A DNA stretch of 64,000 nt from Parcubacteria group bacterium (GCA_016180525.1 JACPBB010000002.1:225044-289043); one strand, 5' to 3'; shown: positions 8,558-64,000, numbered from the stretch's first letter. Made by a program: numbers and translations. Notes: generated by a model not told the origin, from the sequence alone.

Positions 8558-8831
8558 CACGCTTCGCATGGCTTATTTTGTTTACATAGAAATTTTTCAC
8601 TCGTTGTTTAAATACATTTCCCCACTTAGTTTTAAGGAATCTTTCTCTCTGGAATGCTTCCGATTGAGAAATATATTTTTCTGTATAAATCAGAACGAGA
8701 GGTCTGCGAAATTTTGTTGCAGGTATAAATCCTTTATTATGTCTCGCAACTCTTTTTTGTATATTTCTTGTACAGCCTGTATAAAGTTTTTCATCTTTCT
8801 TGCTGTACAGAATGTAAACAAAATAAGACAT
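8553..8831 (-). CDS. GIY-YIG nuclease family protein (stand-alone, 92 aa)
   Basis: YFVYILYSKKDEKLYTGCTRNIQKRVARHN matches the GIY-(x10)-YIG motif. It sits in a GC-elevated patch with repeat E1 at its 3' end. Confidence 0.7.
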   Translation of the reverse strand: MSYFVYILYSKKDEKLYTGCTRNIQKRVARHNKGFIPATKFRRPLVLIYTEKYISQSEAFQRERFLKTKWGNVFKQRVKNFYVNKISHAKRG

Positions 8832-8912
8832 GTGAATTAATATAACACATCAGTCCTAAAAGGTGGGGGCAAGCTTTTGTTGTTTTTCTTTTTGTCGCTT
8901 GCCCGAAGTTGT

Positions 8913-9098
8913 TCAGCAGGATGCCGCGATCGCGATGTCCACACGCTTCCGGCCGATGTCGCGGTCAATGAAGACCGGATTTTCGTCGGATGTGTCGTGG
9001 TGCGGATGAAGTTCGGAAACCTCATCCAAATCATCGTCGTCTTCAACGGCGGGATCCAATGTTGGGATCTCTCCGTCTGGCAGAGTAAACCTTGCCAT
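8913..9098 (-). CDS. Small acidic protein (61 aa)
   Basis: Ideal SD GGAGGAAATATCATG upstream. The D/E-rich run VEDDDDLDEVSE lies within a roughly 52% GC stretch. Overlapping alternative-frame ORFs in the track are judged less likely. Confidence 0.4.
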   Translation of the reverse strand: MARFTLPDGEIPTLDPAVEDDDDLDEVSELHPHHDTSDENPVFIDRDIGRKRVDIAIAASC

Positions 9099-9182
9099 GA
9101 TATTTCCTCCGTTTGGCAGGTATGCCTGAGGTGGTCAGGCAAACATCCCACCTTTTAAAACTGATACAGATTTTAAAAGAAC

Positions 9183-9623
9183 TTAACCTCTTAATTTTCG
9201 TCCAATATCGCGCTCAGTGTCTCGCTTCTTGATAGCTTGTCGTTTATCATATTTTTTCTTTCCGCGCGCAACGGCAATCTCAAGTTTTACTTTTCCTGCC
9301 TTATTATACACTGAAATGGGCACTATTGTCAACCCTTTCTTTTTTTCATACCCCGCAATTTCAGATATTTCTTTTCTATTGAGTAAAAGCTTGCGTACCC
9401 GATTCGGATCATAATCTCCTGGGGTATTTTTCACTTGATATGGGGGAATGTGCATGCCGACTATAAACGCTTCGCCGCCACGCACTATTATATAGGCACC
9501 GGAAAGCGAGCCCTGCCCCCCCTTCAGAGACTTTACTTCAAATCCGAGCAATTTCAAACCTGCCTCGAATTTCTCAAGGACTTCATAATTGAAATATGCT
9601 TTTCTGTTTTCTATAAGCCTCAT
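9183..9623 (-). CDS. smpB: SsrA-binding protein SmpB
   Basis: Typical length (146 aa) and conserved blocks EVKSLKGG, VPISVYNKAGKVKLEIAVARGKKKYDKR. Confidence 0.85.
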   Translation of the reverse strand: MRLIENRKAYFNYEVLEKFEAGLKLLGFEVKSLKGGQGSLSGAYIIVRGGEAFIVGMHIPPYQVKNTPGDYDPNRVRKLLLNRKEISEIAGYEKKKGLTIVPISVYNKAGKVKLEIAVARGKKKYDKRQAIKKRDTERDIGRKLRG

Positions 9624-9709
9624 ATCCGCATTGTAGCATAGCGTTGACTTGTTTTTGGCAGGTGTGATAAGGTTACGGCAGATACTTATGGGTTCGCAAG
9701 GAGAAGGTA

Positions 9710-11287
9710 ATGAAAACAGCGCAGGAACGTCTTGCCAAAGTACATTTTTTCTCGGTAAAACCTGATCTTTCGGCTCTTAACACAAAACAAAAACGAGCGC
9801 TTGCTCATTGCGTCAGTGCGGCGCAAATCATGACTGACATATATCTTGGCCAAGCACACTCTGGCAATAAGGACATTTACAACGAACTTCAAAAACGAAG
9901 TGACGCTGAAGGAAGAGATCTCTTGCGTTACTTTCTTATTCATGGATGTCCGTGGGACGCGTATGATAATGATAGGCCATTTATTCATGGAGTTGGAGAA
10001 AAGCCAAAATTTGGTTCTTTCTACCCACCTGATTTGACGGAAGGCGAGTGGAAATCGTATCTGGAATCACATCATAAAGAACGCGAACAACTTGAGAGTA
10101 ACTATACCGTAGTGAAGCGCCGGGGTGCTAATCTGGTCGCAGTTCCCTATTCACAAGAATATAAGGACAGATTGGAAGATGCTGCGAATTGTTTGCGGAA
10201 AGCAGCGTCTCTTTTATCTCCCGGAGCATTGCAATCGTTTTTGCAACTTCGTGCGGATGCTTTTCTTTCGAATGATTACTTTGAAAGTGATATGGCGTGG
10301 GTGGACACAGATGGAAACCCCTTTGAAGTAACAATTGGCCCCTACGAAACATACTTTGATAGGCTGCTCGGTCTGAAGGCTTCTTTTGAAGCATTTATCG
10401 CATTACCGGACAAAGATGCAACAGTAGCTCTCGGAAAGTTTACGCCACTGGTGCCCGACTTTGATCTCATGCTCAGTCAAGAGTTCAACTTCGCTCCAAA
10501 AGGCGCTGCGATTCCTTTAGAAGTTGTTGCGGACGTGATGCGTGGAGGTGAGGCTGGATTCGGTTATATGTTCGTGGCGTACAATTTGCCCAATGATCGA
10601 AGAGTGCACGATATTAAGGGGTCAAAAAAAGTATTTTCTCGAACAATGATGGAGGCGAAGTTTTATACGGAAGTGCTTCCTGTTGCGGAGAGAATACTCC
10701 CGCCCGCTCTAGCCGAATTGTGTACCTTTGACAATCTCTTTAACTTTGTTCTCGGACATGAATTGGCACACGGCCTTGGTCCAAGCAAGGTGAAGGTTGA
10801 CGGGAGAGAAATGCCATTTGAGGTTGCGCTTAAAGATCTCCACTCTTGTCTTGAGGAAGCAAAGGCGGACATGCTCGGCTTCAGGTTACTTAATTACTTC
10901 AGGAGCCGGGGAGTGTTTGATGACAAAATGCTTGCCGGAATGGTAATTACAGAAATCGCAGCTCACTTCCGCCAATGGAGACACGGGTTTACGGAAGCTC
11001 ATTCTAAAGGCGAGCTTATTGAGTACAACTGGCTCAAGTCGGCTCATGCCCTGCATTACAACAGAACATCTAAAAAGTATGAAATTGATGTGGAACGTTC
11101 TCTTCAGGCAATGTCTCGTTTAAGCACAGAATTTCTGAATCTACAGGTGGCTGGTGATTATGAGCGTGCAAAAAATTTCGTGAAGCAGTGGTCATCCGTT
11201 CCGGATGAACTTCCTTCAATTATAGAAGGCCTCACTGATATTCCAACCGCAGTAAGTCCTGTGTGGGATCTGTCGGAGTTAAAATAA
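9710..11287 (+). CDS. Zinc metallopeptidase with HEXXH (HELAH) plus downstream EEAKAD motif, DPP III (M49)-like
   Basis: HELAHGLGP followed about 40 aa later by LEEAKADMLG, resembling the second zinc-ligand motif of M49. 525 aa. Paired hairpin terminators at 11300-11400. Confidence 0.4.
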   Translation: MKTAQERLAKVHFFSVKPDLSALNTKQKRALAHCVSAAQIMTDIYLGQAHSGNKDIYNELQKRSDAEGRDLLRYFLIHGCPWDAYDNDRPFIHGVGEKPKFGSFYPPDLTEGEWKSYLESHHKEREQLESNYTVVKRRGANLVAVPYSQEYKDRLEDAANCLRKAASLLSPGALQSFLQLRADAFLSNDYFESDMAWVDTDGNPFEVTIGPYETYFDRLLGLKASFEAFIALPDKDATVALGKFTPLVPDFDLMLSQEFNFAPKGAAIPLEVVADVMRGGEAGFGYMFVAYNLPNDRRVHDIKGSKKVFSRTMMEAKFYTEVLPVAERILPPALAELCTFDNLFNFVLGHELAHGLGPSKVKVDGREMPFEVALKDLHSCLEEAKADMLGFRLLNYFRSRGVFDDKMLAGMVITEIAAHFRQWRHGFTEAHSKGELIEYNWLKSAHALHYNRTSKKYEIDVERSLQAMSRLSTEFLNLQVAGDYERAKNFVKQWSSVPDELPSIIEGLTDIPTAVSPVWDLSELK

Positions 11288-11401
11288 TTTTTGATATAGC
11301 ATGAGCCCGAAATGAATCGGGCTTTTTCTTTTTACATATCAATTTTAACATTGTAATTTTAAAAAGCGGTCTGATGTTTATCAGACCGCGTTGATTTTTA
11401 T

Positions 11402-13231
11402 TTATTTCTTTTTCTGTTTTGCGTAGAGCTGTTCTGCCTCCGCAAGTAATTTCTCAATTGACGCGAAGCCCAAGTTCCAAAATTCTGGGTTTGTCGGGTC
11501 AAGGCCGAATGGAGCAAGTAATTCTTTCGGTCCTTTTGAGCTTCCGGCGCGCAAAAGGTCAAGATACATTTTTTCAAACTCTTTTTTCTCAAATCCACTT
11601 TGCGCCGCGTAGAGCGACTGAGTTAAGAGTTCTCCAAACGCGTATCCATAGACATAGAACGGATTGTGGAAATGTGGAATATATGCCCACAGATAGTCAA
11701 AGTCTTTGTATCTGAAGACTGAGCCATCTTTGCCATAGATTTTTTCTGTTACTCTTTTCCAAATCTCGTTAAATTCAGGAACCGACAATCGTCGAGGAGA
11801 AGCATGGATTTCCTGCTCAAAGAACGAAAAACAAATTTGGCGGATAACGGAATTCATCATATCGCCAAGCTTGCCCATATTGAGAGCGAGCAACTCTTCA
11901 GGATTATTTTTCTCTACCGCCCTCTGTTTTAAGGAATTAAATGTTGTCATTTCTCCAAAGATGGAAGCGGTCTCGGCAAGCGCGATCGGTGCCTGCTGCA
12001 TCAGTGCCCCCTGCGCCTCACCCGCAAGAATACCGTGCACGCCGTGTCCCAATTCATGTGCCAAGGTCATTACATCTCGTTCTGTTCCCAAGAAATTCAA
12101 AAGCGTGAAACATACGGGCTTGTGTCCCGGAAGGGTAAGCGGTGCGTTAAACGCGCCGCTTGATTTATTCTTAACCCGCGGTGCGTCAATGCGCTTCTCT
12201 TGTACCATCTTTGCAACAATGTTTCGTAGTGTCGGACTGAAGCTTCCATATGCGGAAAGTACGAGCTCAATTGCTTCCGGATATGTAATCAATTCATCAC
12301 TTTTTTCAAATAGTAGAGGAGCATTTCTGTCGCTCCAGAGGAGTGGCTTAATGCCGAGCATTTCTCCTTTGAGAGCGTAGTATCTCTGTGCGAGAGACGC
12401 TCCCATGTTTGCAACAGCTTCATGAAGGGCGAGAACGGCCTCATCAGGAATTTTGTTTTCTTTGTTCCGCTCTGACATGGGGTGTGGATATTTACGCTCT
12501 CGGTCAGAAACCTGTTTTAATCCGACGATCATGTTGAGCGTTTGTCCGGAAAGACGCGCGAAATGTCCGCCTAATCCCTTGTTGAATGCTTTAAGCGCTC
12601 TTGCACGGCGAGAACTCTCTTGTGCTGTTCCAAGGACGTGGAGTATCTCATTCTGGTCAAGCTTTTTTCCCTCAAACGGGAAGCGCAACAGCACATCTTC
12701 CTCATCATAATATTTACTCCATGATTCCGGTCCGAACATCTTGCGCTTAGAAAGCGCGCTCTCAACCTCTTCTTCTAAAAGATGCGGTTTTGTTTTCCGA
12801 ACATCTAGAATCCACGGCATATGGAATGAAATAACGTTGCTTTTCTTAGATTGCACTGTAATGTATTTTTGCGGCAGACGTGCGAGTTCAAGGGCAAAGA
12901 AAGTGAGATATTCTCCGTTTACGCGACTCATCAATTTTTGTACCTCATCCACTTTTGTTTTTACCTTCTCGCTTGTTTCGTCAAGAGCTTTTACAAGGAG
13001 TAGGTAAGACATTATTTTGGTTCCAAGTTCCTCAATGTTAATCCACGTTTCCACCGCTTTTCCAAGGCGCGTGCGGAGTTTTCCTTTAAACATGTTTTCA
13101 AATTGCCGCGCGCGTTCCTCAAGCAGTCTCATGTCCGCGTTTATCTGCGGGTCGTCAATTCCTTTATAAAAACAAGACAAATCCCAGCGTACATTTTCTG
13201 TTCCAAGCGCTTTTGCCGTCGCAGTACTCAT
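11402..13231 (-). CDS. pepF: Oligoendopeptidase F (M3B family)
   Basis: HELGHGVHG zinc motif; about 600 aa; overall M3B architecture. Confidence 0.75.
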   Translation of the reverse strand: MSTATAKALGTENVRWDLSCFYKGIDDPQINADMRLLEERARQFENMFKGKLRTRLGKAVETWINIEELGTKIMSYLLLVKALDETSEKVKTKVDEVQKLMSRVNGEYLTFFALELARLPQKYITVQSKKSNVISFHMPWILDVRKTKPHLLEEEVESALSKRKMFGPESWSKYYDEEDVLLRFPFEGKKLDQNEILHVLGTAQESSRRARALKAFNKGLGGHFARLSGQTLNMIVGLKQVSDRERKYPHPMSERNKENKIPDEAVLALHEAVANMGASLAQRYYALKGEMLGIKPLLWSDRNAPLLFEKSDELITYPEAIELVLSAYGSFSPTLRNIVAKMVQEKRIDAPRVKNKSSGAFNAPLTLPGHKPVCFTLLNFLGTERDVMTLAHELGHGVHGILAGEAQGALMQQAPIALAETASIFGEMTTFNSLKQRAVEKNNPEELLALNMGKLGDMMNSVIRQICFSFFEQEIHASPRRLSVPEFNEIWKRVTEKIYGKDGSVFRYKDFDYLWAYIPHFHNPFYVYGYAFGELLTQSLYAAQSGFEKKEFEKMYLDLLRAGSSKGPKELLAPFGLDPTNPEFWNLGFASIEKLLAEAEQLYAKQKKK

Positions 13232-13335
13232 CGGTCTTCTCCCTTCTTAAGTCTGGCCTAAGTTTATGGATATTCATCTGAAAGTCAAACAATCTTCTCT
13301 AATGAATCAATGTACCCCTTTTATTTTTAGAGATT

Positions 13336-15351
13336 ATGTTGTATAGTAAAATTCATATGTTTCCGGAAAATCAAAAAGAAAAAAAGAGCAAAAAGGGTAA
13401 CATGCCTCCATTTTTAAAAGGTCCCAGTAAGGGCACCTCGCGAAATCAGTTTTGGGGAAATCTTTTAAGCACTCTTTTGATACTTCTTATTATTGTTACG
13501 GCGTATTCGCTTATTGTTGAAAATAAAAAAGAGAAAATTGAAATACCCATTTCTGTTTTGGCGCAAGATATAAAAGGCGAGCTTATTTCAAAAATTACGG
13601 TTTCTGGAGAAAAAATAACGGCAACATATAAAGAAAAAGACCCGAACGCCCCCGCTCCAAAAGAAGGAGATGAGTCTGCGTATGTCACAAAAGAATCAAA
13701 AAAAGAGGCGGGTACGGCTCTCTCCGATACGTTGGTAAACTATGGAGTAACGGCACAACAGTTGGGCGCCCTTGAAATTGAAATTAAAAAAGAATCAGGA
13801 CTCGCATTCTTTTTATTAAACGCGGCGCCATTTTTGATTCCCATTATATTTATTCTCCTCTTTTTCTGGCTTATTTCTCGCCAAATGAAAGGGGCAGGCA
13901 TGCAAGCGTTTACATTCGGCCAGTCAAAGGCTCGGATTATTGACCCGAATGATAAAAATCAGAGGGTAACATTTAAAGATGTCGCCGGAGTCAAAGAAGC
14001 GAAGGAAGAACTTGTAGAAATCGTTGATTTTTTAAAAAATCCGAAAAAGTTTTTAGATATAGGTGCGCGTATTCCAAAGGGCGTGCTTTTAATGGGCGCC
14101 CCTGGAACCGGGAAAACGCTTCTTGCCCGCGCGGTTGCAGGGGAGGCGAAGGTTCCATTTTTCTCAATTTCAGGTTCAGAGTTTGTTGAAATGTTTGTCG
14201 GCGTTGGCGCCTCTCGTGTTCGCGATTTGTTTAAAATGGCGAAAAAGGCCGCTCCCTCCATCGTGTTCGTAGACGAAATAGACGCTGTTGGTCGCGTGCG
14301 TGGTACTGGTGTTGGCGGCGGGAATGATGAACGGGAACAGACACTCAATCAGATATTAGTTGAGATGGATGGATTTGAGCCGAATGAAAAAGTAATTGTG
14401 ATGGCAGCGAGCAACAGACCGGATGTATTAGATCCTGCGCTTTTGCGTCCCGGAAGATTTGATAGACGCGTTGTTCTTGATTTGCCGGATATTCATGACA
14501 GGGAGGAAATTTTAAAAATTCACAGCGTTAAAAAGCCGCTTGGAGAAGATGTTGATCTTAAAGTGATTGCACAGAGAACACCGGGATTTTCAGGAGCCGA
14601 CTTGTATTCACTCATGAATGAGGGGGCGATTTTGGCAGCGCGTGAAAGTCGCAAAACAGTTACTCAATACGACCTTATTCGTTCTATTGAAAAAGTGATG
14701 CTCGGGCCAGAACGAAAAAGCCATCTGCTTTCTAAACAAGAAAAGAAAATAACCGCGTATCATGAAGCCGGACACGCGCTCGTCGCCTCGGTCCTCCCGC
14801 ACGCAGACCCCGTGCACAAAATATCAATTGTTGCGCGTGGACATGCGGGTGGCTATACATTGAAACTTCCATTTGAAGAAAAACGGCTTCAGTCTCGCAA
14901 GGTGTTCTTAGATGACATTGCTGTTTCTTTGGGAGGCTATGTTGTAGAGAAAATGATTTTTGGAGATTTAACAACTGGACCATCAAATGATTTGCGTGTT
15001 GCTGCAGCTCTCGCGAGGGATATGGTAACGAAATACGGCATGTCAGAGGCATTTGGCCCCGTGGCGCTTGAGGACTCCGGTGGAAGGCTTTTCTTGGGCC
15101 GAACCGCAACGGGAGAGCGGGAATATTCTGAAGATGTTTCTAAAAAAATTGACGCGGAAGTTGCTCGCATTATTGATGAGGCGATGGAGAAGGCGACAAA
15201 AGTCGTTACAAAGCATAGAAAGGCGCTTGATGCGATTGCTGGTGAGCTTATTAAAACTGAAACACTGGAACGTGCAGAGTTTGAAAAAGTACTCATTGTA
15301 AATGGCATTACGCCTAAAAAAGAAGCAGAAGATGAAATTGAAAAAAAATAA
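13336..15351 (+). CDS. ftsH: ATP-dependent zinc metalloprotease FtsH
   Basis: N-terminal TM segments, Walker [19 protein letters not shown], second region of homology, and protease motif HEAGHAL. Terminator at 15377-15418. Confidence 0.9.
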
Positions 15352-15449
15352 TTACATTTTAAAGCATCTTTAAAAATGCCCTCTCATTTGTGTTGCAAAT
15401 GAGAGGGCATTTTGATAGGAATTTAGCTGCATAGTGTATAATTTTAGTA

Positions 15450-17777
15450 ATGGCTAATATTCTTTTTGTTTACAGGCTTGCGTTTGTTTGTCTTTTAGCG
15501 CTGATATTATTTTTTTTTCCATTTTTGATCGTGCGCGCCGTTAATGTAACAACGGTAGTTTTACCCAATGGGGGAGAGTGTCTTACGGTCGGCGAATCCT
15601 ACACGATTCGATTTTCGTGGAGCGGGGCTGACGTTGAACATCTTGCTATTTACTATCGAACCGACGGCGCGCAGCCTACACATCTTGACTCTTCTACTAT
15701 CAAGCACCCGATAAACGTTCCGCAACAAGGCACGACATGGAATTGGACTCCAGGCAGTTCCAATATATCTGAGACGGGCAGGGTCTGGGTTGACGGGCAT
15801 GAAAACGGTCATGATTCTCTGGCGACTTGGGATAATTCTGATGCGGATTTTGCGGTCCGCGCGGATTGCTCTGAGCCAGCTCCAGCAGAGCAGAGTAGCG
15901 CTCCTAGACCTCTTCCCACAGGCCCTGCTCCTGTGTTTTCTTTTTTACCGGAGCCCGAGCCTATACTTCCAAAGGGCGGAGGGCCAGTGTCATATCCTCC
16001 AACGATTGAATTTACGAATACCTTTAAATTTGGTCAAATTTTTAGCGATGTTATTGATATTTCATTTATGGCTGATGACCTAAATAATATTGACAAACGA
16101 GATACGTTTGGAATCTCAAATCATCCGGTATCCCTTTTTTATACAAGCGGAAAAAATTTAACCAAGCGAACCCTCATTGCGCAAGGACTTGCCAGCACGA
16201 CATCATATACATGGAGAGTCCGCGATATTCCCGACGGGAACGACTATCGTGTCATTGCCGAGGTGGCTGACAGAAGCGGACTTGTTGGGCAAGCGATAAC
16301 ACCTCCTTTTACAATTGATAACTCAATTCCTTCGGCTGAAGTATTCAGTCGTACATCTATAATTTCGTGGAGAACCCCCACTCCAACCTATTCGTTTGTT
16401 GAATATGGAGAGAGAGTCAGAGAGAGGGCGGTATCGGGGAGGGAAACAGTCCCCGATACACTCCCTTCGAGAGAACATTTTTTCATTATTGAAGGCTTGA
16501 GTCCAAATACGACATATCATTTTCGTGTGATAAACTCAATTACTCCGATTTTACGGCAAGGGCAAAGAGAGGCGCAAGACTATTTTGACCCTCAATTTAC
16601 TGTGTTTCCAAAATCATTTACAACCGCACCAGTTTCAGCCGTGGATGTTTCTCCGGTTTCTGGAATATTCACTGTTTCCGGCCGAACAACAATGTTGTTG
16701 TCATGGGTACGTTCAACAAAAGCATCTTTTGAAACTATTATTGTGCGACAACAGGGACGCTTTGCCAGAAATCCAAAAGATGGAGAGGTCGTTTTTCGAA
16801 GCAACGCGTCATATTATAGAGATGCCGGGTTGCGGCCAGAAGAAACTTATCAGTACAGTATTTTTCAAACAGATGGGCTCGGCAATTTCTCGTTCCCTCG
16901 TTTTGTGCGCGCAACAACAAAAGAAGGATTAAAAGAAGTCCCGACTCCTCCGCTTGAAGAAAGCGAACCCTCGCTACAGTTACGAGTGGGAAGTTTTTCA
17001 TCTGAATCGGGTGGAAAAACTGTTACGCTTCGTTGGAAAAATCCAAATAACCCTCATTTTTTAGGTGTTCAAATTGTGAGAAATACAGAATCACTGCCGT
17101 CACATTCCTTTGACGGCGCCGTTCTGTTCCGAGGATTAGCGGAGAGCTTTACTGACTCCGATTTAGTGCCTGGCAATCGTTATTTGTATGGGATTTTTCC
17201 GTTTGATTGGAACAACGCGTTTTACTCAGGCTCCTTTACTTCGGGTGTTCCAGAGGAGAGTTCCGCATTTGAAACACTTTCTTCTTTTTTGGTACCCGTT
17301 TCCGCGACGTCCTCTTCTATGAAACCTCTTGCCGATATCCAGATTCAGATTAACGCACTGTATGAAAAAGTTAAGGAAATTTCTCTCGCGATACAAGTAT
17401 TACTCGGGGAAGGGCCGTTTACGTCATCTCTGTCTTCCGGAAAAAAAGAGTCGATGCCGAGTCCCGAGGTACGGCAGTCCAAAACACACATCGTATATAT
17501 TACTGAATCGGGATTTAGTCCAAAGGAGATTATTATACAAAAAGGAGATACGGTATTGTGGATAGGGAGGAGTACGGGACACTCGTGGCCCGCCTCCGAT
17601 ATTCATCCGACTCACGGTTTATACCCTGAGTTGGGAGGCTGTATTGGAAGCACATTTGATTCCTGTCGCACGCTCTCCTTGGGAGACGAATATTCTTTTT
17701 TGTTCAACAAAGTTGGGGTATGGCAGTATCATGACCACCTCAATCCTCTACACGCGGGTACTATTACGGTACAATAA
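15450..17777 (+). CDS. Large secreted/surface protein with repeated beta-sandwich (FN3/Ig-like) modules and a C-terminal His-rich cupredoxin-like domain
   Basis: N-terminal hydrophobic segment. The C-terminal about 100 aa (GDTVLW...HSWPASDIHPTHGLYP...YHDHLNPLHAGTITVQ) is shared with 17857-18465 and 25164-25640. Confidence 0.5.
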   Translation: MANILFVYRLAFVCLLALILFFFPFLIVRAVNVTTVVLPNGGECLTVGESYTIRFSWSGADVEHLAIYYRTDGAQPTHLDSSTIKHPINVPQQGTTWNWTPGSSNISETGRVWVDGHENGHDSLATWDNSDADFAVRADCSEPAPAEQSSAPRPLPTGPAPVFSFLPEPEPILPKGGGPVSYPPTIEFTNTFKFGQIFSDVIDISFMADDLNNIDKRDTFGISNHPVSLFYTSGKNLTKRTLIAQGLASTTSYTWRVRDIPDGNDYRVIAEVADRSGLVGQAITPPFTIDNSIPSAEVFSRTSIISWRTPTPTYSFVEYGERVRERAVSGRETVPDTLPSREHFFIIEGLSPNTTYHFRVINSITPILRQGQREAQDYFDPQFTVFPKSFTTAPVSAVDVSPVSGIFTVSGRTTMLLSWVRSTKASFETIIVRQQGRFARNPKDGEVVFRSNASYYRDAGLRPEETYQYSIFQTDGLGNFSFPRFVRATTKEGLKEVPTPPLEESEPSLQLRVGSFSSESGGKTVTLRWKNPNNPHFLGVQIVRNTESLPSHSFDGAVLFRGLAESFTDSDLVPGNRYLYGIFPFDWNNAFYSGSFTSGVPEESSAFETLSSFLVPVSATSSSMKPLADIQIQINALYEKVKEISLAIQVLLGEGPFTSSLSSGKKESMPSPEVRQSKTHIVYITESGFSPKEIIIQKGDTVLWIGRSTGHSWPASDIHPTHGLYPELGGCIGSTFDSCRTLSLGDEYSFLFNKVGVWQYHDHLNPLHAGTITVQ

Positions 17778-22084: not shown

Positions 22085-22125
22085 AAAAACATTCTAATAT
22101 TCTGGAGAATATTAGAATGTTTTTA
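22085..22125. terminator. Perfect 19-bp-arm palindrome AAAAAACATTCTAATATTC-TGGA-GAATATTAGAATGTTTTT; bidirectional terminator-like. Copy 1 of a conserved palindrome.
   Basis: It abuts the 3' end of recG (minus strand). The 20-nt core CTAATATTCTGGAGAATATTAG is identical to 57934-57955. Confidence 0.6.
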
Positions 22126-29486: not shown

Positions 29487-29518
29487 ATGAGATAATTATA
29501 ACTAATTTATTTTTTAGC

Positions 29519-29650
29519 GGAGGCGGCAGGAACCTCACTACTCAGCCGATGGTCATCGGCTTGCGTTTTCAAACCACTCGGTTTGAAGAATCCTCCACGA
29601 GAAAATTACAGTTTTCCCGACCCCTTTCGTGTTCGAATCCTGCCGTCACG
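29519..29650 (-). repeat. Structured element A: about 105-nt multi-hairpin core capped by tRNA-Ser 3'-end-like termini
   Basis: 5' GGAGGCGGCAGGA equals the last 13 nt of the adjacent tRNA-Ser (as read on the plus strand). 3' ...GTTCGAATCCTGCCG is the inverted copy. The core CTCACTACTCAGCCGATGGTCATCGGCTTGCG... is homologous to element B, with compensatory changes. Confidence 0.6.
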
Positions 29651-29700
29651 AAAAGACGCTTTTTCAAAATACCCATATGGGGTATCTTAAAAAATCATTT

Positions 29701-56258: not shown

Positions 56259-57899
56259 ATGAAAAAATCTCGTAAATATATATTCGTCATCGGAGGTGTA
56301 ATGTCGGGCGTTGGCAAGGGTATTGCCACCGCCTCTATTTCTAAAATATTGGAGGCGCGCGGGCTCTCTGTAAACGCCATCAAAGTTGACCCGTATTTAA
56401 ACGTTGACGCCGGCACTATGAATCCAACCGAGCACGGAGAGGTGTTTGTTTTAAAAAGCGGGCTTGAGTGTGATCAGGATATGGGCAACTACGAGCGTTT
56501 TTTGGGGAAAGATTTAAAGGATGATTTTTATGTCACGAGCGGCATGGTGTACAAAAGTGTCATAGACAGAGAGCGGAGTCTCGGATATAAGGGAAAGTGC
56601 GTTGAGGCCATACCGCATGTTCGGGATGAGATAACTCGTCGGTTCAAGCGTGGCGTTGATTTAAACAACGCGGATGTTGCCGTGATTGAAATCGGTGGCA
56701 CCGTTGGCGATTACCAAAACGTCATGTTTATTGAAGCCGCGCGCGTGCTCAAAGTTGAAAATCCTAATGATGTGCTTTTCGTGCTCGTAACATACCTTCC
56801 GATACCTAAAATGATAGGAGAAATGAAAACGCGTCCGACGCAAAACGCCGTGCGCCAGCTTAACTCATATGGCGTTCAGCCCGATGTGATCATCGCGCGA
56901 AGCGAAGCGCCGCTTGATAAACGGAGAAAAGAGAAGATTGCCGTTTCCTGCAATGTCCTCTCCGAATATGTTATCTCCGCGCCTGATGTAGAGAGTGTGT
57001 ATGATGTGCCGATTAATTTTGAAAAAGATAAAATCGGAGAGATGCTATTGCGGAAATTACAACTCAAAATATCTCGGCGGAAGAGCGACATGGGAGGCTG
57101 GAAGCGTTTTGTTTCTAAAGTAAAGGGCGCGAGAAAGAGCGTGAAGATCGCGCTTATCGGCAAATATTTTGATACGGGAGATTTTGTGCTCTCCGACTCC
57201 TACATTTCCGTTATAGAGGCACTTAAAATATCGGCATATACGCAAGGGAGAAAGCCGGAGCTCACATGGCTCTCCGCCGAGGAATTTGAGAAAAATTCCC
57301 GCGCGCTCCGGAAATTGGATTCATTTGACGGCATCGTGGTGCCGGGAGGGTTTGGTAGCCGCGGCATTCTCGGGAAAATAAAGGTTATTGAATACGTGCG
57401 TAAGAAAAAAATTCCGTATCTCGGGCTTTGCTACGGCATGCAGCTTGCGGTGGTTGAGTTTGCCCGTAATGTTGCCAAATTAAAACGGGCGCATACGACT
57501 GAGATTTTGTCGCAGACCCCGCATCCGGTGATTGACATCATGCCTGAACAGAAAAAGATTGTCGCCGATGAGAATTACGGTGGCACAATGCGGCTTGGCG
57601 AATACGTAGCGCTTCTTAAAAAGGGAACGATTGCACGGAATGCCTATGGCAAAGAAACCGCGCATGAGCGGCACCGGCATCGCTTTGAAGTAAACCCAAA
57701 CTATATTAAACGGCTGGAGAAAGCGGGAATTGTGTTTTCTGGCGCCTCACCTGACGGAAAACTTATGGAAATAGTGGAGCTTCCTAAAAAAGTACATCCA
57801 TTTTTCCTCGGCACGCAGTTTCACCCCGAGTTTCAGGCGCGACCACTCTCTCCGCATCCGCTTTTTACGGAGTTTATAAAAGCGGCAATCAAAAAGTAA
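56259..57899 (+). CDS. pyrG: CTP synthase
   Basis: N-terminal synthetase domain GGVMSGVGKG. C-terminal glutamine amidotransferase with GLCYGMQ and H/E. 546 aa. Confidence 0.9.
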   Translation: MKKSRKYIFVIGGVMSGVGKGIATASISKILEARGLSVNAIKVDPYLNVDAGTMNPTEHGEVFVLKSGLECDQDMGNYERFLGKDLKDDFYVTSGMVYKSVIDRERSLGYKGKCVEAIPHVRDEITRRFKRGVDLNNADVAVIEIGGTVGDYQNVMFIEAARVLKVENPNDVLFVLVTYLPIPKMIGEMKTRPTQNAVRQLNSYGVQPDVIIARSEAPLDKRRKEKIAVSCNVLSEYVISAPDVESVYDVPINFEKDKIGEMLLRKLQLKISRRKSDMGGWKRFVSKVKGARKSVKIALIGKYFDTGDFVLSDSYISVIEALKISAYTQGRKPELTWLSAEEFEKNSRALRKLDSFDGIVVPGGFGSRGILGKIKVIEYVRKKKIPYLGLCYGMQLAVVEFARNVAKLKRAHTTEILSQTPHPVIDIMPEQKKIVADENYGGTMRLGEYVALLKKGTIARNAYGKETAHERHRHRFEVNPNYIKRLEKAGIVFSGASPDGKLMEIVELPKKVHPFFLGTQFHPEFQARPLSPHPLFTEFIKAAIKK

Positions 57900-57923
57900 G
57901 AAAAGACCATTATCGTATCTCAT

Positions 57924-57967
57924 TACAGACATCCTAATATTCTGGAGAATATTAGGATGTCTGTAAA
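57924..57967. promoter_or_regulatory. 20-bp-arm palindrome TTACAGACATCCTAATATTC-TGGA-GAATATTAGGATGTCTGTAA. Copy 2 of the conserved palindrome.
   Basis: Its core is identical to 22096-22115. It lies between pyrG and the TfoX-like gene, with no T-tract on the plus side. Confidence 0.6.
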
Positions 57968-57972
57968 AAGCG

Positions 57973-58323
57973 ATGTCTTCAAATTCCGAATATCACGACT
58001 ATATTGTGCACGATGTACTCGGAGGCATTCCGGGCATCACGTCGCGCAAAATGTTTTCCGGCTTTGGAATATACAAAGACGGGATTGTGTTTGCCATCAT
58101 TGCCGATGGCGATTTGTATTTCAGGACCGACGATAAGAATCGTCCTGATTTTGAAAAATATGGAAGCGAGCCGTTTTCATATCCGCGCGCGGGGAAAACC
58201 GCGACATTAAAAAATTACTGGCGCCTGCCGGAGGAAATAATGGAAGACAAAGAAAAAATTTTTGATTGGGTAGAGGAGGCTGTGCGCGCAAGTGTTGAGC
58301 GGCAAAAGAAAAAGACCTCATAG
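57973..58323 (+). CDS. TfoX/Sxy N-terminal-domain-like protein
   Basis: KMFSGFGIYKDGIVFAIIADGDLYFRTDD resembles the TfoX_N signature. 116 aa. Confidence 0.5.
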   Translation: MSSNSEYHDYIVHDVLGGIPGITSRKMFSGFGIYKDGIVFAIIADGDLYFRTDDKNRPDFEKYGSEPFSYPRAGKTATLKNYWRLPEEIMEDKEKIFDWVEEAVRASVERQKKKTS

Positions 58324-58414
58324 AAAAGAGGTTTTTTATTTGACAATTATTGTGCAAATTGCTCTACTCTATATTAGATTGTTTGCTTAGCAATATGTAC
58401 AGAGGAGGTCTGTA

Positions 58415-59326
58415 GTGGCAAAAAGTCCGCTCGTTTCATTTACAGAGTTTCTTGCGCTCGTGAAGTCGGGATCTATCGGGGAGACAGTTCTTGTGCCCGC
58501 GGTGCCGCTTTTCTATGAGATAGGAACTGATAAGTTTTGGGAAATAGAGATTGATGATGACCCGCTTGTTGCCGTTAATAAGGCCGGTAGAAAATATTTT
58601 CAGGAGTCTAGCCTAGACTGGCGCTGGCCGGCAGGAGGGCTTGCGATTATCCTTGCGCTCAAAGACAACCAAAATGTTCTCATTGCGCTTCACAGAGACG
58701 CAGGGGCTCCATCTAACCCGGATTGCGATACGATTGCGGCAGGACTCGGTTCGTCTGTTGAAGATATGTGTTATCCGCTTCGTCTTGCGTTTCGCGAAGG
58801 AATGGAAGAAGTTCTTGTAAAAACTCCGCACGGAGTTTTATATCCGCACCTGCAAGATGATCCGTTTGGACACTCGCTTGCGCTTAAAAATATTGTTGAA
58901 AGTACCGCAAGGGCAATTTTTAATTTATCAGTTTCTAACTTTATACCAGGGGAAGCATTTATCCTTGAGACGCCCGCGGAAGAGGATGTTCGGGTAAAGT
59001 GGCGCGGTGTATCATATCTCTCCCGAGGAATTGTTCTCTTAGATCCAAAAACGCACGGAATAGATGTAATCAAGGTGCTTATCATGCACGCTCCATGCAC
59101 ACTTGATGAACTTACTGTCTGTGACGGCGAGTGTATTGACGGCGTGCCAATTCATCGAAGCGTGTATGCGTACGAACTTGATGAGGATCATTGCCCCACG
59201 GGGAAAATCATAGCCGGATGGAAGGCTGGCGCGCGACTTTCTGCCTCTCAAATACCCGCCACCCAGAAACAAACTCCAACATTAGAAAAAGCTCTTTGGG
59301 CGCTCGGACTTTATAGACCAGCGTAG
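58415..59326 (+). CDS. Hypothetical protein (303 aa), GC-elevated
   Basis: ORF with moderately higher GC than the flanks. No recognised motif. Confidence 0.3.
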   Translation: MAKSPLVSFTEFLALVKSGSIGETVLVPAVPLFYEIGTDKFWEIEIDDDPLVAVNKAGRKYFQESSLDWRWPAGGLAIILALKDNQNVLIALHRDAGAPSNPDCDTIAAGLGSSVEDMCYPLRLAFREGMEEVLVKTPHGVLYPHLQDDPFGHSLALKNIVESTARAIFNLSVSNFIPGEAFILETPAEEDVRVKWRGVSYLSRGIVLLDPKTHGIDVIKVLIMHAPCTLDELTVCDGECIDGVPIHRSVYAYELDEDHCPTGKIIAGWKAGARLSASQIPATQKQTPTLEKALWALGLYRPA

Positions 59327-59469
59327 TGAGAAAATCGTACAGTGCGAATGGTTCAACCCGTTCGCATTTTTATTAGGCCACAGGGCCACTTTTGCTTGAC
59401 AGGATATCTATATCATGCTAGAAATGGCACAGAATAACGCATAGCAACTTTGGCGAAGGAGTTCTGCAC

Positions 59470-59886
59470 ATGCAGACCGTGAAAACAGTTACAGTGCAAC
59501 AGCGAGGCACATACAGCATTTATTACTCTCACGGAGACGACAGTCCGGATTTGTTTGCGCTTGATTGGGCGTTTACGCCAACCGACGGCATATCTAAAAA
59601 CGATGGCAAGCCCGCCGAGCACAAATGGTTTTCGTCGGTGAAAGAGGGACAGCGCTGGTGGCCACACAATGAAACAGATGAAAAAATGCATGAGGTGCTT
59701 CTCGAACATTTCGGTCTTGCCGAGTGGAAAGAACAGTATCCGCTTAAGGAGATGAAGTTGATGTCCCCGCGGATGCTTGCTCGTGAGCGATTGGAAAAAG
59801 AGAGAAAGAATCCAAGGTTAGAGAAGCATAAAATGAAAAGCGATACTGCTGGATTTCCGATTCTCGCCAAAGAGTACCGCGACTAA
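59470..59886 (+). CDS. Hypothetical protein (138 aa)
   Basis: ORF. A short hairpin (GCGCACACACGTGCGC) ending in a T-run follows at about 59901-59924. Confidence 0.3.
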   Translation: MQTVKTVTVQQRGTYSIYYSHGDDSPDLFALDWAFTPTDGISKNDGKPAEHKWFSSVKEGQRWWPHNETDEKMHEVLLEHFGLAEWKEQYPLKEMKLMSPRMLARERLEKERKNPRLEKHKMKSDTAGFPILAKEYRD

Positions 59887-59950
59887 GATTTAGAAATTAA
59901 GCGCACACACGTGCGCTTTTTTTAACACGAGTTCTTTTGCTCTACTCAAA

Positions 59951-60083
59951 ACTGCCGGGCTTGGAATCTCACTGCTCAGCCGATGGCCATCGGCTTGCGC
60001 TCACGAACTCAGCGGTTCGTGGGCTCCGCCGCGGGGAAACTCCCGTTTCCCCGACCCCCTTCACGTTCTCGTCCAGCCCGGCA
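59951..60083 (-). repeat. Structured element B: tRNA-Gln-like acceptor/T-stem minihelix closing a roughly 105-nt multi-hairpin core homologous to element A
   Basis: Termini CTGCCGGGCTTGG ... CCAGCCCGGCAG match the ends of tRNA-Gln at 62342-62412. Core CTCACTGCTCAGCCGATGGCCATCGGCTTGCG-CACGAACTCAGCGGTTCGTG-GGGGAAACTCCCGTTTCCCC-GACCCCC. Confidence 0.6.
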
Positions 60084-60208
60084 GTTTTTCACTGCGTTCA
60101 AAACTGGCCGTCTTGAGTTAGAACTATTGACGGTTAAGTCCCGCTTACTCGGTTTAATTTTCTTTTCGCTTATCAAAACGACGTGTCTCGTGCGAGTTAA
60201 AGAACGTG

Positions 60209-60574
60209 TTACTTAAGCCACTTTGGTTTTAGCTCATCAACATCGTGCGCGTCGAGGTATTCTGAAGCATCTCTTTTCCTTTTTAGCCCCAAGTGATCCA
60301 ATTGTTCTGCTTTTTCAGCAATTTCTCCAGCTTCGTCACGCTGTACAAACCTGCCCGTACTTGTCATAAAACCATCTTCGGGTTTCGTATCATAATCGGA
60401 CCAATCAGGACGTTCCTCCTCCATAGCAATAACGGCATCCATATGAGTGTTGCCTGTAAATATCTGCCCACCTAACCTAATTGCAGAGGCAGTGATTTTT
60501 TCTATTTTGGGAGTGAATTTTTCTAGGCCACCTTCCATAAATATAGTATAGCCCTTAACCTTAGATAAATTCAA
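60209..60574 (-). CDS. Hypothetical acidic protein (121 aa)
   Basis: ORF only. Confidence 0.3.
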   Translation of the reverse strand: MNLSKVKGYTIFMEGGLEKFTPKIEKITASAIRLGGQIFTGNTHMDAVIAMEEERPDWSDYDTKPEDGFMTSTGRFVQRDEAGEIAEKAEQLDHLGLKRKRDASEYLDAHDVDELKPKWLK

Positions 60575-60694
60575 ATAAACGCACCTCGTGCGCGATTACC
60601 TGTCACGAGTTGGTTGCCGGGCTTGGTATCCTTCGCTACCCCCCTTCGCCAAGGCTTCGGAGGTCAAGAAAGCTTCGGAATACCTCTTTTGCGC

Positions 60695-60877
60695 TTAGTC
60701 ATCTTTCTTCAAGGCTTCAGTGTTCAATAGTCTTTTATACGCAAAAGCCTTTCCAGAACCTGATTTTAAATATCGCTCAAAATCTTTGGCAAGTTTCTGT
60801 CTTTTCCGCAAATCTTCTGTATAACCATAATAAAAATTCTTAGATTTTGAGCTCCATAAAATGTAGACATAATGCAT
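60695..60877 (-). CDS. GIY-YIG domain protein (60 aa, minimal domain) flanked by 12-bp inverted repeats
   Basis: MHYVYILWSSKSKNFYYGYTEDLRKRQ. CGCCAAGGCTTC at 60647-60658 and its reverse complement GAAGCCTTGGCG at 60895-60906. Confidence 0.55.
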   Translation of the reverse strand: MHYVYILWSSKSKNFYYGYTEDLRKRQKLAKDFERYLKSGSGKAFAYKRLLNTEALKKDD

Positions 60878-61012
60878 AGCTTTAGTCGTTCTGAAGCCTT
60901 GGCGAAAGACGACTGACTACCTCAGTTTAGAACCCCACACCTTGAGACCTTGTAAGGATTCTTTGGGTACTTCCAGTGTAGCAAATTGAGGCATCTCAAT
61001 CAGACCTGTTTT

Positions 61013-62299
61013 TTATCGCTTATGGTATTCCCAAACTTTGTAGACCCGAGTCAAAAAACCTATATTCCCAACAGACTCTTTGAATTCCTTATCTAATGTC
61101 GCAGTTCCATCAGGTTTTCGATTTATTCCCATAAAATGCATCTCTGTTCTTTCCGGCGATGCGGCCAATATCATTACTTGTTCTTTTTTATTTTTTTGAA
61201 GCCGAGGAGGCACTAAATCTTCACCTTCTTTCGGCAGCTCACCCAACCACATCTCACCGACTATTAACACAGCTGCGCAGTGCGTTTCTTCTACTTTCTC
61301 AGCAATACGCTCAGCCATTAAATAACGGTCTTCTGGTTTATCCATCTGTATGCGGATTATTTCAGGGTGTCGATCGGGAAAATATAAAAATGCGACAGGG
61401 TCCACATAACCATCAATACTAAACAAATGTTTGGCTGTCTCAATGTGGTACCTTACTTGACTGAAAGGGAGATCTTTTCCTCCCGTATTCATCAGAGCCA
61501 TTATTTCTTTTGGTACGCCATAACGTTTCTTGGCACGTTCGTAGTGTGTTTCATCGCTACCAGATATTTTGTCAAAAAGAGAAACTGATCTTTCTTTGGG
61601 AGTAAGAATTGTATTTTGACTATAATGAACTTTAAGGATGCGTCCCTTTTTCACGTCGTTCCGAATGGTAATCATGAAATCCTGACCTGGTTTTACAAAA
61701 GTATTATGATCACAAACCATGGGATTTACACTGCATACCACATGAGCGTCATAAACTATCTTTGTGAGGATGGAGAGACAATAAATCAAGACATCAGTTA
61801 TTTCGGCTTTCGGGAAACTCTCTACAACCCATTTGCGCTCTGCTTCGATAATTGTCTCGTCTTTGTAATGCTTAGGTAACTTTAGTTTTACTACTTTTTT
61901 GAAGTTTACTACCGCTTCTTCTAGAGAAACATATGGGTTAAGTACCGCTGCAAAAAGAACTTGGTCTAAATGATTTTTTATCCTCAATGTGAGATGACTT
62001 TCCTTTTCTAGGTCCCCTCTCTTAACTACATAGTTACGGGCATCTACGAGCCAGCGTAAAATTTTGTCTGTTTTCATTTTCGCTTGGTATGGCGCGTACC
62101 AATTATCAAAATCTGGAATTTTTGACTTCTCTGACTGAAGAATAAAAGTTATGTTGCGTAGGGCTTGTACCAAGTCGTTGAGTGCCGTTGTGAACTCCTC
62201 TGGTTTCTGATATTGGATCCCTATTTCTTCAAACATTGAAAAGGCCTGATTCAGGCGTCTATGAGTCTGTGGGAGTGAACAAACGGATTTACTACTCAT
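61013..62299 (-). CDS. Hypothetical protein (428 aa), no recognisable domain; sits between a GIY-YIG element and tRNA-Gln
   Basis: Long clean ORF; the tRNA-Gln gene lies 43 nt upstream on the same strand. Confidence 0.4.
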   Translation of the reverse strand: MSSKSVCSLPQTHRRLNQAFSMFEEIGIQYQKPEEFTTALNDLVQALRNITFILQSEKSKIPDFDNWYAPYQAKMKTDKILRWLVDARNYVVKRGDLEKESHLTLRIKNHLDQVLFAAVLNPYVSLEEAVVNFKKVVKLKLPKHYKDETIIEAERKWVVESFPKAEITDVLIYCLSILTKIVYDAHVVCSVNPMVCDHNTFVKPGQDFMITIRNDVKKGRILKVHYSQNTILTPKERSVSLFDKISGSDETHYERAKKRYGVPKEIMALMNTGGKDLPFSQVRYHIETAKHLFSIDGYVDPVAFLYFPDRHPEIIRIQMDKPEDRYLMAERIAEKVEETHCAAVLIVGEMWLGELPKEGEDLVPPRLQKNKKEQVMILAASPERTEMHFMGINRKPDGTATLDKEFKESVGNIGFLTRVYKVWEYHKR

Positions 62300-62341
62300 A
62301 TGAAATTTGTGAGATTACTGGCATCTCAGTCACCTGACTTA

Positions 62342-62412
62342 GCATAAGCTTCCTGCCGGGCTTGGACTCGAACCAAGATAAATAGATCCAGAGTCTATTG
62401 TCCTACCGTTAG
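62342..62412 (-). tRNA. tRNA-Gln (anticodon CUG)
   Basis: TGCCGGG-TC-GTCTAACGGTAGGAC-A-ATAGA-CTCTGGA-TCTAT-TTAT-CTTGGTTCGAGTCCAAG-CCCGGCA-G. Confidence 0.75.
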
Positions 62413-63052
62413 ACGACCCGGCAATGTTATTAATCTATACTAAAATCAAGCTTGTTTCAATAATGAGAGAATAGCAATATTTAATGTGTTAAAATAAACT
62501 CATAGAAACAATACAATCAGAAAAATGGCCGCGGTTTGTAGAAATGGTGGGGAAATGGTGTCACTCCTTCGTCCTCCTACGCTGAAGCTTTGGAAGGACT
62601 ACGGACGGGCAAGCAGGTACCTTTTTCTGTAAAAAATAGATTTAAACCCCCACACCTATCGAGTAATTCTTAACGTGCGCTACGGCGCTATTGCTCGATA
62701 GGTGTGGGGGTAAACATTTCGCCGTAGCTCTAAATTCCGCAACACAACATCCTTACATTCTCCCCAAGTAGTAGAGCAAAGCTCACTACGGGGCAGGCAA
62801 GTATGTAAGGATGTTGTTTGAGGGGGTTGTGGTTTGGGGGAGGAGGGGCGGGCGGGGTTTTGCGCTTGAACTTGAAATAGAACGTTTTTGCGCGCCCACG
62901 CAAAGGCAAAAAATTGACTTTTGCGCTTCAGGGTGTGATTATGGGGAAATAATATGTCTAAAACCAATTTAATGAAGTAAATATGCAAAAACTTTTTGCA
63001 AATTACATTCAATCTGTCTCCACTAAATTTTCTCACAAGGAGACAAGCGAAA

Positions 63053-64000
63053 TGGGCTACCGCACCGATTTTGAGAGTTTACTCAAGGGAATTTTTGAAT
63101 CCATAAATGTAAAACGAATTGACCACGACGCTCGCGCAAAACAAGGGAATAAGCCAGATTTTGTTCTTTATAATCATGAAATACCAATTTTATATATTGA
63201 AGCAAAAGATATTGGTGTTTCTCTAGATAAGGTTGAAAAGTCGGAGCAGATGGCGAGATACTACGGCTACACAAATTTGGTCCTTACGGATTATGTAGAA
63301 TTTCGTTTTTATAGAAACGGTGAACCATATGAAGAGCCAATAAAAATAGCAAATTATGATTTAAAAAACAGAACGATTACACCAATTTCGGAAAATTATG
63401 AACATGCCACCAAAACACTTTTAGATTTTACGCAATCGCAAAAGGAGCCGATAACATCTGGACAGCACCTTGCAAAAATTATGGGAGGAAGAGCGCAGAG
63501 AATCAGAGATAATGTGAAACAGCTTCTTGCGGCGGAATCGGGCAAAGATGCTGAAATTAATCGTGTGTATGAAGCGGTTAAAAAATTTCTTGTTCATGAC
63601 CTTACGCTAGATACTTTTGCTGATATGTATGCGCAAACACTCGTGTACGGACTTTTTGTGGCTCGCTTTCATGATGAAACGCAAAAAGATTTTTCTCGCC
63701 AAGAAGCGCGCGATCTTGTTCCTGCGTCTAACCCATTTCTCGGACATTTCTTTGACCACATTGCAGGCCGTAATTTTGAGAAACGACTTGGGTATATTGT
63801 AGATGAACTGTGCGAAATTTTTTCTCACGCAAACGTTAAAGAGCTAATGAAACAATACTTTAAAGATGATCTGTGGGGGCAAAAGCACGAAGGACCTGAC
63901 CCGGTTATTCATTTTTATGAAGATTTTTTGAAAGAATATGACGCAGACCTCCGCAAAAACAGGGGGGCATATTATACACCCCTACCCGTTGTGCGGTTTA
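63053..64000 (+). CDS. 5' part of a type IIG (MmeI/Eco57I-like) restriction-modification enzyme: N-terminal PD-ExK endonuclease motif plus gamma-class N6-adenine methyltransferase; runs off the window
   Basis: Not in the ORF track (no in-window stop). Hand translation from ATG 63053 is open to position 64000. PDFVLYNHEIPILYIEAKD (PD...E-x-K). Methyltransferase motif I DPVIHFYEDFL and GAYYTP at the last codons. Confidence 0.65.

Follow-up and report, generated by a model that had tools for sequence, protein, structure and literature searches.

A composite variable region at tRNA-Gln downstream of pyrG in a Parcubacteria genome, with a gene of the lambda Ea47 family

We analysed 64,000 nucleotides (nt) of DNA from a Parcubacteria group bacterium (GCA_016180525.1 JACPBB010000002.1:225044-289043), hereafter the window, and concentrated on the region between pyrG and a restriction-modification (R-M) gene near its end. 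A first-pass annotation had taken this region for an accessory island of unknown genes anchored at tRNA-Gln, and had named two of its proteins, of 428 and 121 amino acids (aa), as the main candidates for an undescribed function. Our findings lean towards a composite, lineage-specific variable region, of which the minus-strand part would be decayed mobile cargo at tRNA-Gln and the gene of the 428-aa protein, a relative of lambda ea47, would be defence-related.

All ten features listed at the outset are present in the order given, eight of them with exact coordinates. The tRNA-Gln, first placed at 62342-62412, lies about 10 nt further on, and the open reading frame (ORF) of the R-M gene begins at 63052 and not at 63053, from which the frame contains 15 stop codons. 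The two genes described as GC-elevated, p303 and p138, are so only marginally, with a GC content of 0.48 against 0.476 for pyrG and a window mean of 0.437 (standard deviation, sd, 0.033). Homologs elsewhere were found for every ORF of the block, which means that these are real genes and none is a chance ORF. The features are as follows.

56259-57899: pyrG
57923-57966, no strand: perfect 21-bp palindrome with a 2-nt loop, 24 nt past the pyrG stop and 6 nt ahead of the tfoX ATG
57973-58323, plus strand: tfoX, a TfoX_N-only protein of 116 aa (Pfam PF04993, 5.9e-30)
58415-59326, plus strand: p303, a near-orphan protein of 303 aa, with a terminator-like hairpin at 59341-59368
59470-59886, plus strand: p138, 138 aa, from a small family that is uncharacterised; a terminator hairpin at 59899-59918 precedes a T-run
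59948-60088, minus strand: element B, a structured element of about 135 nt with a core in common with element A and the L110 unit
60209-60574, minus strand: p121, an acidic protein probably of the T4_Y16D family (PF26092), with a likely start at 60538 that gives 109 aa
60593-60579: terminator-like hairpin after the short hairpin unit
60614-60684, minus strand: short hairpin unit whose end (60614-60630) repeats the tRNA-Gln 3' end at 12 of 14 positions
60695-60877, minus strand: GIY-YIG remnant of 60 aa, with 24-nt inverted repeats at 60697-60720 and 60891-60914
61013-62299, minus strand: lambda-Ea47-like protein (PF26900) of 428 aa, 52 nt off the tRNA-Gln 3' end
62352-62424, minus strand: tRNA-Gln(CTG), with a promoter-like site at 62460-62432
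62425-63051, no strand: non-coding spacer of 627 nt, with two long hairpins and a G-rich tract
63052-64000, plus strand: 5' part of a type IIG R-M gene, running off the window (PADLOC REase_MTase_IIG, 7e-77; Pfam HSDR_N, 4.7e-6)

Counted away from tRNA-Gln, the minus strand carries the Ea47-like gene, the GIY-YIG remnant, the short hairpin unit, the terminator-like hairpin, p121 and element B. The promoter-like site lies upstream of tRNA-Gln, and no terminator separates the tRNA from the Ea47-like gene.

The 428-aa protein had been described as lacking any recognisable domain. Both its similarity to lambda ea47 and the family profile place it in PF26900 (Phage_lambda_Ea47). A tblastn comparison with lambda ea47 aligned residues 14-352 at 25.6% identity (E 6e-12), and the protein matches phrog_19262 at 4.9e-18. 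A precomputed PF26900 assignment exists for the exact protein and for all 38 homologs, and our local copy of Pfam did not report PF26900. The most conserved part is the N-terminal stretch of about 200 residues, the core of which (LRNxTFxLQ...WY...ARNxVVKxGDL) contains 24 invariant columns in 23 sequences. This part also occurs by itself: a stand-alone Bacillus form of 237 aa, encoded at L126 7001-7714 in Bacillus wiedmannii, is a lone Ea47 N-terminal domain and aligns to residues 6-199 with 35% identity. The public annotation starts the gene at M22 (407 aa), within 62236-62299. Since R15 is invariant in 23 homologs and the homologs span the full 428 aa, translation more likely begins at the upstream ATG, at 62299.

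Structure prediction had been proposed as a check for both candidate proteins. Models were obtained for the two, yet no neighbour in the PDB hints at a function. The AlphaFold model of the Ea47-like protein reaches a predicted local distance difference test score (pLDDT) of 91.4 and a predicted template-modelling score (pTM) of 0.88; its only resemblance in BFVD is to phage proteins of 150-220 aa, all uncharacterised, and its sequence profile finds no match among PDB sequences. We could not show a nuclease, HEPN or NTPase signature in the protein, and a HEPN-like reading of its N-terminal RN motifs gained no supporting match. We take the weak PADLOC match to Drt8 (E 0.008) to be spurious, and the ortholog P0009 gives none at E<=0.01. 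A further ortholog, at L003, was scanned only against Pfam and showed no match. We also set aside a relationship to a neighbouring DUF5677 protein (hhalign probability 0.1).

The Ea47 family is patchily distributed over Patescibacteria, Actinomycetes, Alpha- and Betaproteobacteria, Firmicutes, plasmids and lambda-like phages. Among phages it is restricted to lambda-like ones (18 of 50,697 phage records), with one viral contig in addition. All-vs-all clustering of the flanking ORFs from 25 loci yielded no conserved partner. The contexts in which Ea47-like genes were annotated are the following.

L118: a ThsB-type TIR protein, a methyltransferase and DUF5677
L114: conjugation genes and a PLD nuclease
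L127 and L129: small elements with a large serine recombinase and methyltransferase/ResIII modules
L126: a fused AAA_21-DUF4435 (PARIS-like) gene, a resolvase, a PLD nuclease and a tyrosine integrase, beside the N-terminal form
L122, the viral contig: two integrases and a methyltransferase
L123-L125, plasmids: transposases, AAA ATPases and hypothetical genes

In a bulk scan of the 108 nearest ORFs of 21 loci, the families seen most often were phage integrases (five), GajA/OLD-type ATPases (three), resolvases (two) and reverse transcriptases (RTs; two). One of these RTs, at L012, is of the group-II-intron type and not a defence-associated RT (DRT). The family is thus mobile and without a fixed partner, and it sits beside R-M, recombinase and other defence genes.

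Two lineages that are far apart have the Ea47-like gene directly next to an RT of the UG13b class, in opposite gene order. The RTs of both lineages match the PADLOC model strongly (5e-129 and 4.4e-127) and are 35% identical to each other. At L003 the pair is inserted in a type I R-M operon (6654-15733), with the order hsdM-hsdS-[Ea47-RT]-hsdR; in the second lineage it occupies 698-3441 of L029 and is also found in L030-L032. The pair looks like an undescribed two-gene module. UG13b has been predicted to be defensive, and the main text of that study names no partner for it (Mestre et al., 2022; PMC9226505). The literature that we consulted contains no functional work on Ea47 and gives no partner of UG13b by name; lambda ea47 appears there as a dispensable gene of the accessory region with no function assigned. 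The window itself contains no RT, and it is the orthologous loci L003 and L029-L032 that carry one. In this respect the locus can be likened to the UG13b RT loci through the orthologs of its 428-aa protein, which are operon partners of such RTs, and differs from them in having no RT, as do most loci with Ea47-like genes.

The second candidate, p121, is acidic as first described (isoelectric point about 4.9). It is probably shorter than 121 aa: because all homologs measure 108-110 aa, the start is likely M13 (60538), which gives 109 aa. A precomputed PF26092 (T4_Y16D) match exists for the identical 109-aa protein P0039 and for five homologs, and the local Pfam scan returned nothing. The protein matches phrog_839 (1.8e-6) and has one weak BLAST match in phages (8e-3); its homologs are few. 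The AlphaFold2 model (pLDDT 68.7) shows a beta-beta-alpha-beta-beta-alpha core, for which Foldseek finds no PDB neighbour. Naming the two proteins as candidates of undescribed function stands in that both families are uncharacterised and the kin of the Ea47-like protein occur in defence or mobile contexts; it falls short in that the families are already catalogued.

Among relatives of this genome, a single p121 homolog lies near ftsX-pyrG, in L033. It is located on the 3' side of tRNA-Gln and on the strand of the tRNA, 6.5 kb away behind copper-resistance genes, and no repeats of the tRNA 3' end were found in L033. The copper-resistance cluster (CsoR-like repressor, P-type ATPase, multicopper oxidase; L033 3394-10330) lies between tRNA-Gln and the T4_Y16D homolog, the same slot that holds the GIY-YIG remnant and the Ea47-like gene in the window.

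The 60-aa GIY-YIG ORF had been called minimal, with inverted-repeat flanks. The 24-nt repeats are indeed there; the gene is an internally deleted remnant and not a minimal enzyme. An intact YhbQ-like GIY-YIG gene of 92 aa is found elsewhere in the window (8553-8831, minus strand), directly beside the transfer-messenger RNA (tmRNA) gene at 8086-8492. When the remnant is compared with the small YhbQ-like genes of candidate phyla radiation (CPR) bacteria, the N-terminal GIY...YIG and C-terminal LKSG.G motifs align. The GIY and YIG motifs are both present (Pfam PF01541, 4.4e-6), and the match covers only profile positions 1-27 of 78. Unlike the intact copies of 81-92 aa, the remnant lacks about 25 central residues and with them a complete catalytic core with its central helix and conserved Glu. 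As the deletion removes the conserved Y-x-E segment, the remnant is probably inactive. In the window and in relatives, YhbQ-like genes adjoin tRNA or tmRNA genes, and small GIY-YIG genes seem to favour such flanks in these genomes.

Element B folds as RNA with -72 kcal/mol (z = -4.55). The tRNA-Gln 3' end is repeated directly at the 3' end of the element and, as its reverse complement, in the 5' arm; the closing helix, 12-13 bp long, matches the acceptor and T stems of the adjacent tRNA taken together. The 14-mer CTGCCGGGCTTGGA is the complement of the tRNA-Gln 3' end. Apart from the tRNA itself, it is found at 59952 and, with 12 of 14 positions matching, at 60614; these copies, three with the tRNA included, share one orientation, where 0.25 would be expected by chance. 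A related element, element A, lies at 29516-29653 on the minus strand, 46 nt 3' of tRNA-Ser, and matches the interior of element B (nhmmer E 1.5e-14). The arms of element A are the complement and the copy of the tRNA-Ser 3' end, and there is no cargo at tRNA-Ser. Because element A is built alike with tRNA-Ser ends, the copying of a tRNA end is intrinsic to this family of elements; for the same reason, we dropped the idea that the tRNA-end copy at 59952 is an attachment (att) scar of the Ea47 block.

In about ten relatives, a structured unit of 110-250 nt directly follows tRNA-Gln. Each opens with the complement of its own tRNA 3' end and closes with the copy, and L111 has two in tandem. The members of the family that we identified are A, B, the unit at L110 14518-14642, and those in L083, L061, L066, L087, L104 and L111. 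Elements A and B and the L110 unit have a conserved core of about 95 nt with three hairpins, including the conserved GAAAGGGGTCGGGRAAAC ... GCAAGCCGATGRCCATCGGCTGAGYAGTGAG, and at several positions in the stems A and B differ from each other on either side of the stem; only two or three members can be aligned, and covariation data are scarce. Neither A and B nor the units of the relatives match an Rfam family, a motif in the relatives' units resembling signal recognition particle (SRP) RNA likewise had no Rfam match, and all tRNA-adjacent units together proved too divergent for a single alignment or covariance model with MAFFT and RNAalifold. The window is unusual in that 2.27 kb separate tRNA-Gln from its companion element, and three phage-family genes lie in this interval.

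Several known structures invite comparison with element B. Like an integron attC site, it is a palindrome, though imperfect, with outer arms in which the sequence of an "anchor" site recurs. Unlike attC, it comes with no integron integrase and no GTTRRRY core, and its core of about 95 nt has three hairpins. Its closing helix resembles the acceptor-T minihelix of a tRNA. For the elements, an identity as tRNA-minihelix-like RNAs, as recombination sites or as repeats akin to miniature inverted-repeat transposable elements (MITEs) is equally conceivable.

The relatives used for comparison are 80 metagenomic loci anchored on FtsX, the product of the gene before pyrG, with FtsX identities of 52-74%. 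The ftsX-pyrG pair is kept in 50 of the 80, and in none of the 80 do tfoX, p303, p138, the Ea47-like gene or the R-M gene lie near it. As a control, we took the 25 loci of relatives in which 4 kb or more of sequence follows pyrG: two genes upstream, from the ftsE/ftsX/pyrG block, are common to 23-24 of the 25, and anything downstream occurs in at most 3. pyrG closes a conserved block across the whole clade. A tRNA-Gln follows pyrG in 30 of 36 relatives, at a distance of at most 1.3 kb in 23 and on the plus strand in 25, and the ancestral spacing between the two is short. In the window, by comparison, tRNA-Gln is 4,453 nt from pyrG and inverted. Given the short ancestral spacing and the inverted tRNA, all six genes fall on the ancestral 3' side of tRNA-Gln. 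One inversion of about 57.9-62.45 kb would yield the present gene order.

This flank is occupied in other genomes as well. Genes for large serine recombinases lie 0.1-2.2 kb past the tRNA-Gln 3' end in L050, L092 and L102, and the recombinase of L102 is 61% identical to that of the Ea47-carrying element L129. Small GIY-YIG genes directly follow tRNA-Gln in L096 and L098. The recombinase and GIY-YIG genes past tRNA-Gln in relatives mark the flank as a genuine insertion hotspot. At another tRNA, a large serine recombinase gene lies beside tRNA-Thr in L086.

The three plus-strand genes, tfoX, p303 and p138, are co-directional, host-like in composition and free of any mobile or defence signature, and p303 and p138 are each followed by a terminator-like hairpin of their own. 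The 116-aa TfoX_N protein has no TfoX_C domain in Pfam, and so is short of the full TfoX/Sxy architecture. Among 5.8 billion clusters, p303 has only two homologs (47% and 42% identity), the better of which, in L120, sits amid housekeeping genes, and it has no match in Pfam, PADLOC, NCBIfam or PHROG. The p138 family comprises 72 representative clusters at E<=1e-3, with no Pfam family among the 27 members examined. The gene after the p303 homolog in L120 is unrelated, and we rejected p303-p138 as a conserved pair. On the far side of tRNA-Gln, the R-M gene matches the PADLOC type IIG profile over positions 20-325 of 1096; it begins with an N-terminal endonuclease region as expected of type IIG enzymes, then N6_Mtase begins at the window edge and the rest lies beyond.

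On the basis of these observations, we cautiously favour a region of three parts at the distal end of the conserved ftsE-ftsX-pyrG-tRNA-Gln block of Parcubacteria. The first would be the co-directional, individually terminated and host-like genes for the TfoX_N protein and two unknowns of small families. The second is a 2.4-kb minus-strand segment between the 3' side of tRNA-Gln and element B with three genes of phage-associated families, which we infer to be the decayed cargo of a mobile element: it would have come in at the 3' flank of tRNA-Gln, and its recombinase would have been lost later. The third would be the type IIG R-M gene, beyond tRNA-Gln. The Ea47-like gene may be read through from the tRNA-Gln promoter; it belongs to a horizontally mobile family and probably contributes to phage exclusion or defence. 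In its product, the active core would be the conserved helical/beta domain formed by the N-terminal residues, about 200 in number; the C-terminal alpha/beta domain, which is more variable, would serve as the sensing or regulatory part.

Measured against lambda Ea47, the protein is similar in belonging to accessory DNA by an integration site (the b region near att/int in lambda, the tRNA-Gln 3' flank here) and in that the two are dispensable or uncharacterised. It differs in residing on a Parcubacteria chromosome and not in a phage, as a solitary gene beside a type IIG R-M gene, and in its length of 428 aa; the lambda match extends over only part of its C-terminal domain. Measured against tRNA-linked genomic or defence islands, the segment abuts the 3' end of a tRNA, with the Ea47-like gene on the same strand as the tRNA, adjoins an R-M gene and carries phage-family cargo; it is missing at the locus in relatives, in which the same tRNA has recombinases. 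Unlike such islands it has no recombinase, no skew in composition and no unambiguous att duplication, it extends over 2.4 kb only, and the plus-strand trio does not look mobile. The first-pass proposal of an accessory island at tRNA-Gln thus holds as far as the variable locus and the hotspot flank are concerned, and fails in that the block is not one island, has no recombinase and is normal in composition. That it is not a single island is seen from the host-like plus-strand trio and from the best p303 homolog, which lies among housekeeping genes. A match to a metabolic family, named at the outset as counting against the proposal, was seen for no protein of the block.

A number of results weigh against the composite reading with mobile, defence-related cargo. 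Comparing the presence of the block across related genomes, as had been suggested, showed its genes to be missing at this locus, yet the control found the position variable in all of the relatives; as nothing past pyrG is conserved in any of these distant genomes, the absence of the block is weak evidence. No tyrosine or serine recombinase was found by tblastn in the 64-kb window, nor any transposase, and the intergenic gaps in the block are too short for a recombinase remnant. GC content and GC at third codon positions (GC3) of the block lie within the normal range of the window. The Ea47-like gene, with a GC3 of 0.36 against a mean of 0.42 (sd 0.07), is not atypical, and composition as a signal of transfer showed no anomaly. 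The repeat of the tRNA end at 59952 is no proof of an integration event. The Ea47-like model has no solved structural neighbour, the best Foldseek match in the PDB having E 0.05 and a TM-score of 0.12. PADLOC (PADLOC-DB v2), which had been recommended to look for a defence system, recognises the type IIG R-M gene and has no convincing model for the six other proteins, so that no defence system is detected in the block beyond that gene. The link between Ea47 and defence is itself anecdotal, drawn from about 12 annotated contexts and 21 bulk-scanned loci without a background control.

Some of these points agree equally with an ordinary synteny breakpoint, at which lineage-specific chromosomal genes without a common function would have gathered at an operon end with no insertion. 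This account would explain that genes past pyrG are common to at most 3 of 25 relatives and that the position varies clade-wide, along with the normal composition, the lack of a recombinase in the window, the individually terminated plus-strand genes and the housekeeping neighbourhood of the p303 homolog. We nevertheless regard it as unlikely, although it deserves to be kept in mind, since all three minus-strand genes come from phage-associated families, the Ea47 family is patchy across phyla and adjoins recombinases in other genomes, serine recombinases occupy the same tRNA-Gln flank in relatives, and the companion element that follows the tRNA directly in those relatives is 2.27 kb off here.

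If the segment is of mobile origin, the Ea47-like and T4_Y16D-like genes might instead be counter-defence or takeover genes of a decayed prophage, acting against host R-M and similar systems. Their families are named after phage genes (lambda ea47 and T4 y16D) and match PHROGs, lambda ea47 is a dispensable gene of an accessory region, and Ea47-like genes are often near R-M or methyltransferase genes. Most members, however, are chromosomal or reside on bacterial integrative elements and plasmids, and the L003 gene lies inside a host type I R-M operon with a defence-type RT, a typical position for defence cargo; a counter-defence role is for these reasons improbable. We think still less of a tRNA-anchored cassette array, in which element B and the second copy would be attC-like sites, [Ea47+GIY] and [p121] would be cassettes captured at tRNA-Gln, and the relatives and tRNA-Ser would carry "empty" cassettes. 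It draws on the three tRNA-Gln 3'-end copies in the same orientation, far above the chance expectation, on the occurrence of such a unit after each gene module, on the units directly after the tRNA in relatives with their tandem pair in L111, and on the ends of A and B, which share a core yet match each its own tRNA. On the other hand, the window has no recombinase, a cassette-bearing array is seen in none of the relatives, the elements could as well be tRNA-like non-coding RNAs or MITE-like repeats, and with so few alignable members there is little covariation to judge by. The bolder combination of an integron-like, tRNA-anchored cassette system in Parcubacteria with Ea47 as an anti-phage family, working alone or with UG13b RTs, is one to which we give very little credence.

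Returning to the composite region that we favour, the block is small, decayed and compositionally ordinary; it is of a familiar type, and its genes come from catalogued uncharacterised families. The expectation of a new defence or anti-defence system is borne out to the extent that the Ea47-like gene is a useful lead, and not beyond, as PADLOC sees only the R-M gene. The region is a useful lead and not a new system by itself. It links lambda ea47 to a broad bacterial family that behaves like cargo of defence islands, and if the reading of Ea47 as a defence family is true, lambda ea47 would gain a function. The pairing of Ea47 with UG13b makes the function of both experimentally approachable. 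Parcubacteria are thought to carry few mobile elements, and the tRNA-Gln 3' flank after pyrG is a recurrent integration site in them. The analysis also exposes structured elements that mimic tRNA ends and have no Rfam family. We consider that the Ea47-UG13b pairing and elements A and B merit more follow-up than the island.

Two further kinds of structure were noticed in the non-coding DNA. The spacer of 627 nt has no Rfam match and contains hairpins at 62646-62711 (22-bp stem) and 62744-62817 (18-bp stem). Related copies of the palindrome lie at 22085-22124 and 57923-57966, with the common core CTAATATTCT..AGAATATTAG. Both are situated just 3' of a gene end without a T-run, and the copy at 57923-57966 overlaps the ribosome-binding region of tfoX. 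These palindromes may be non-canonical terminators or a protein-binding site.

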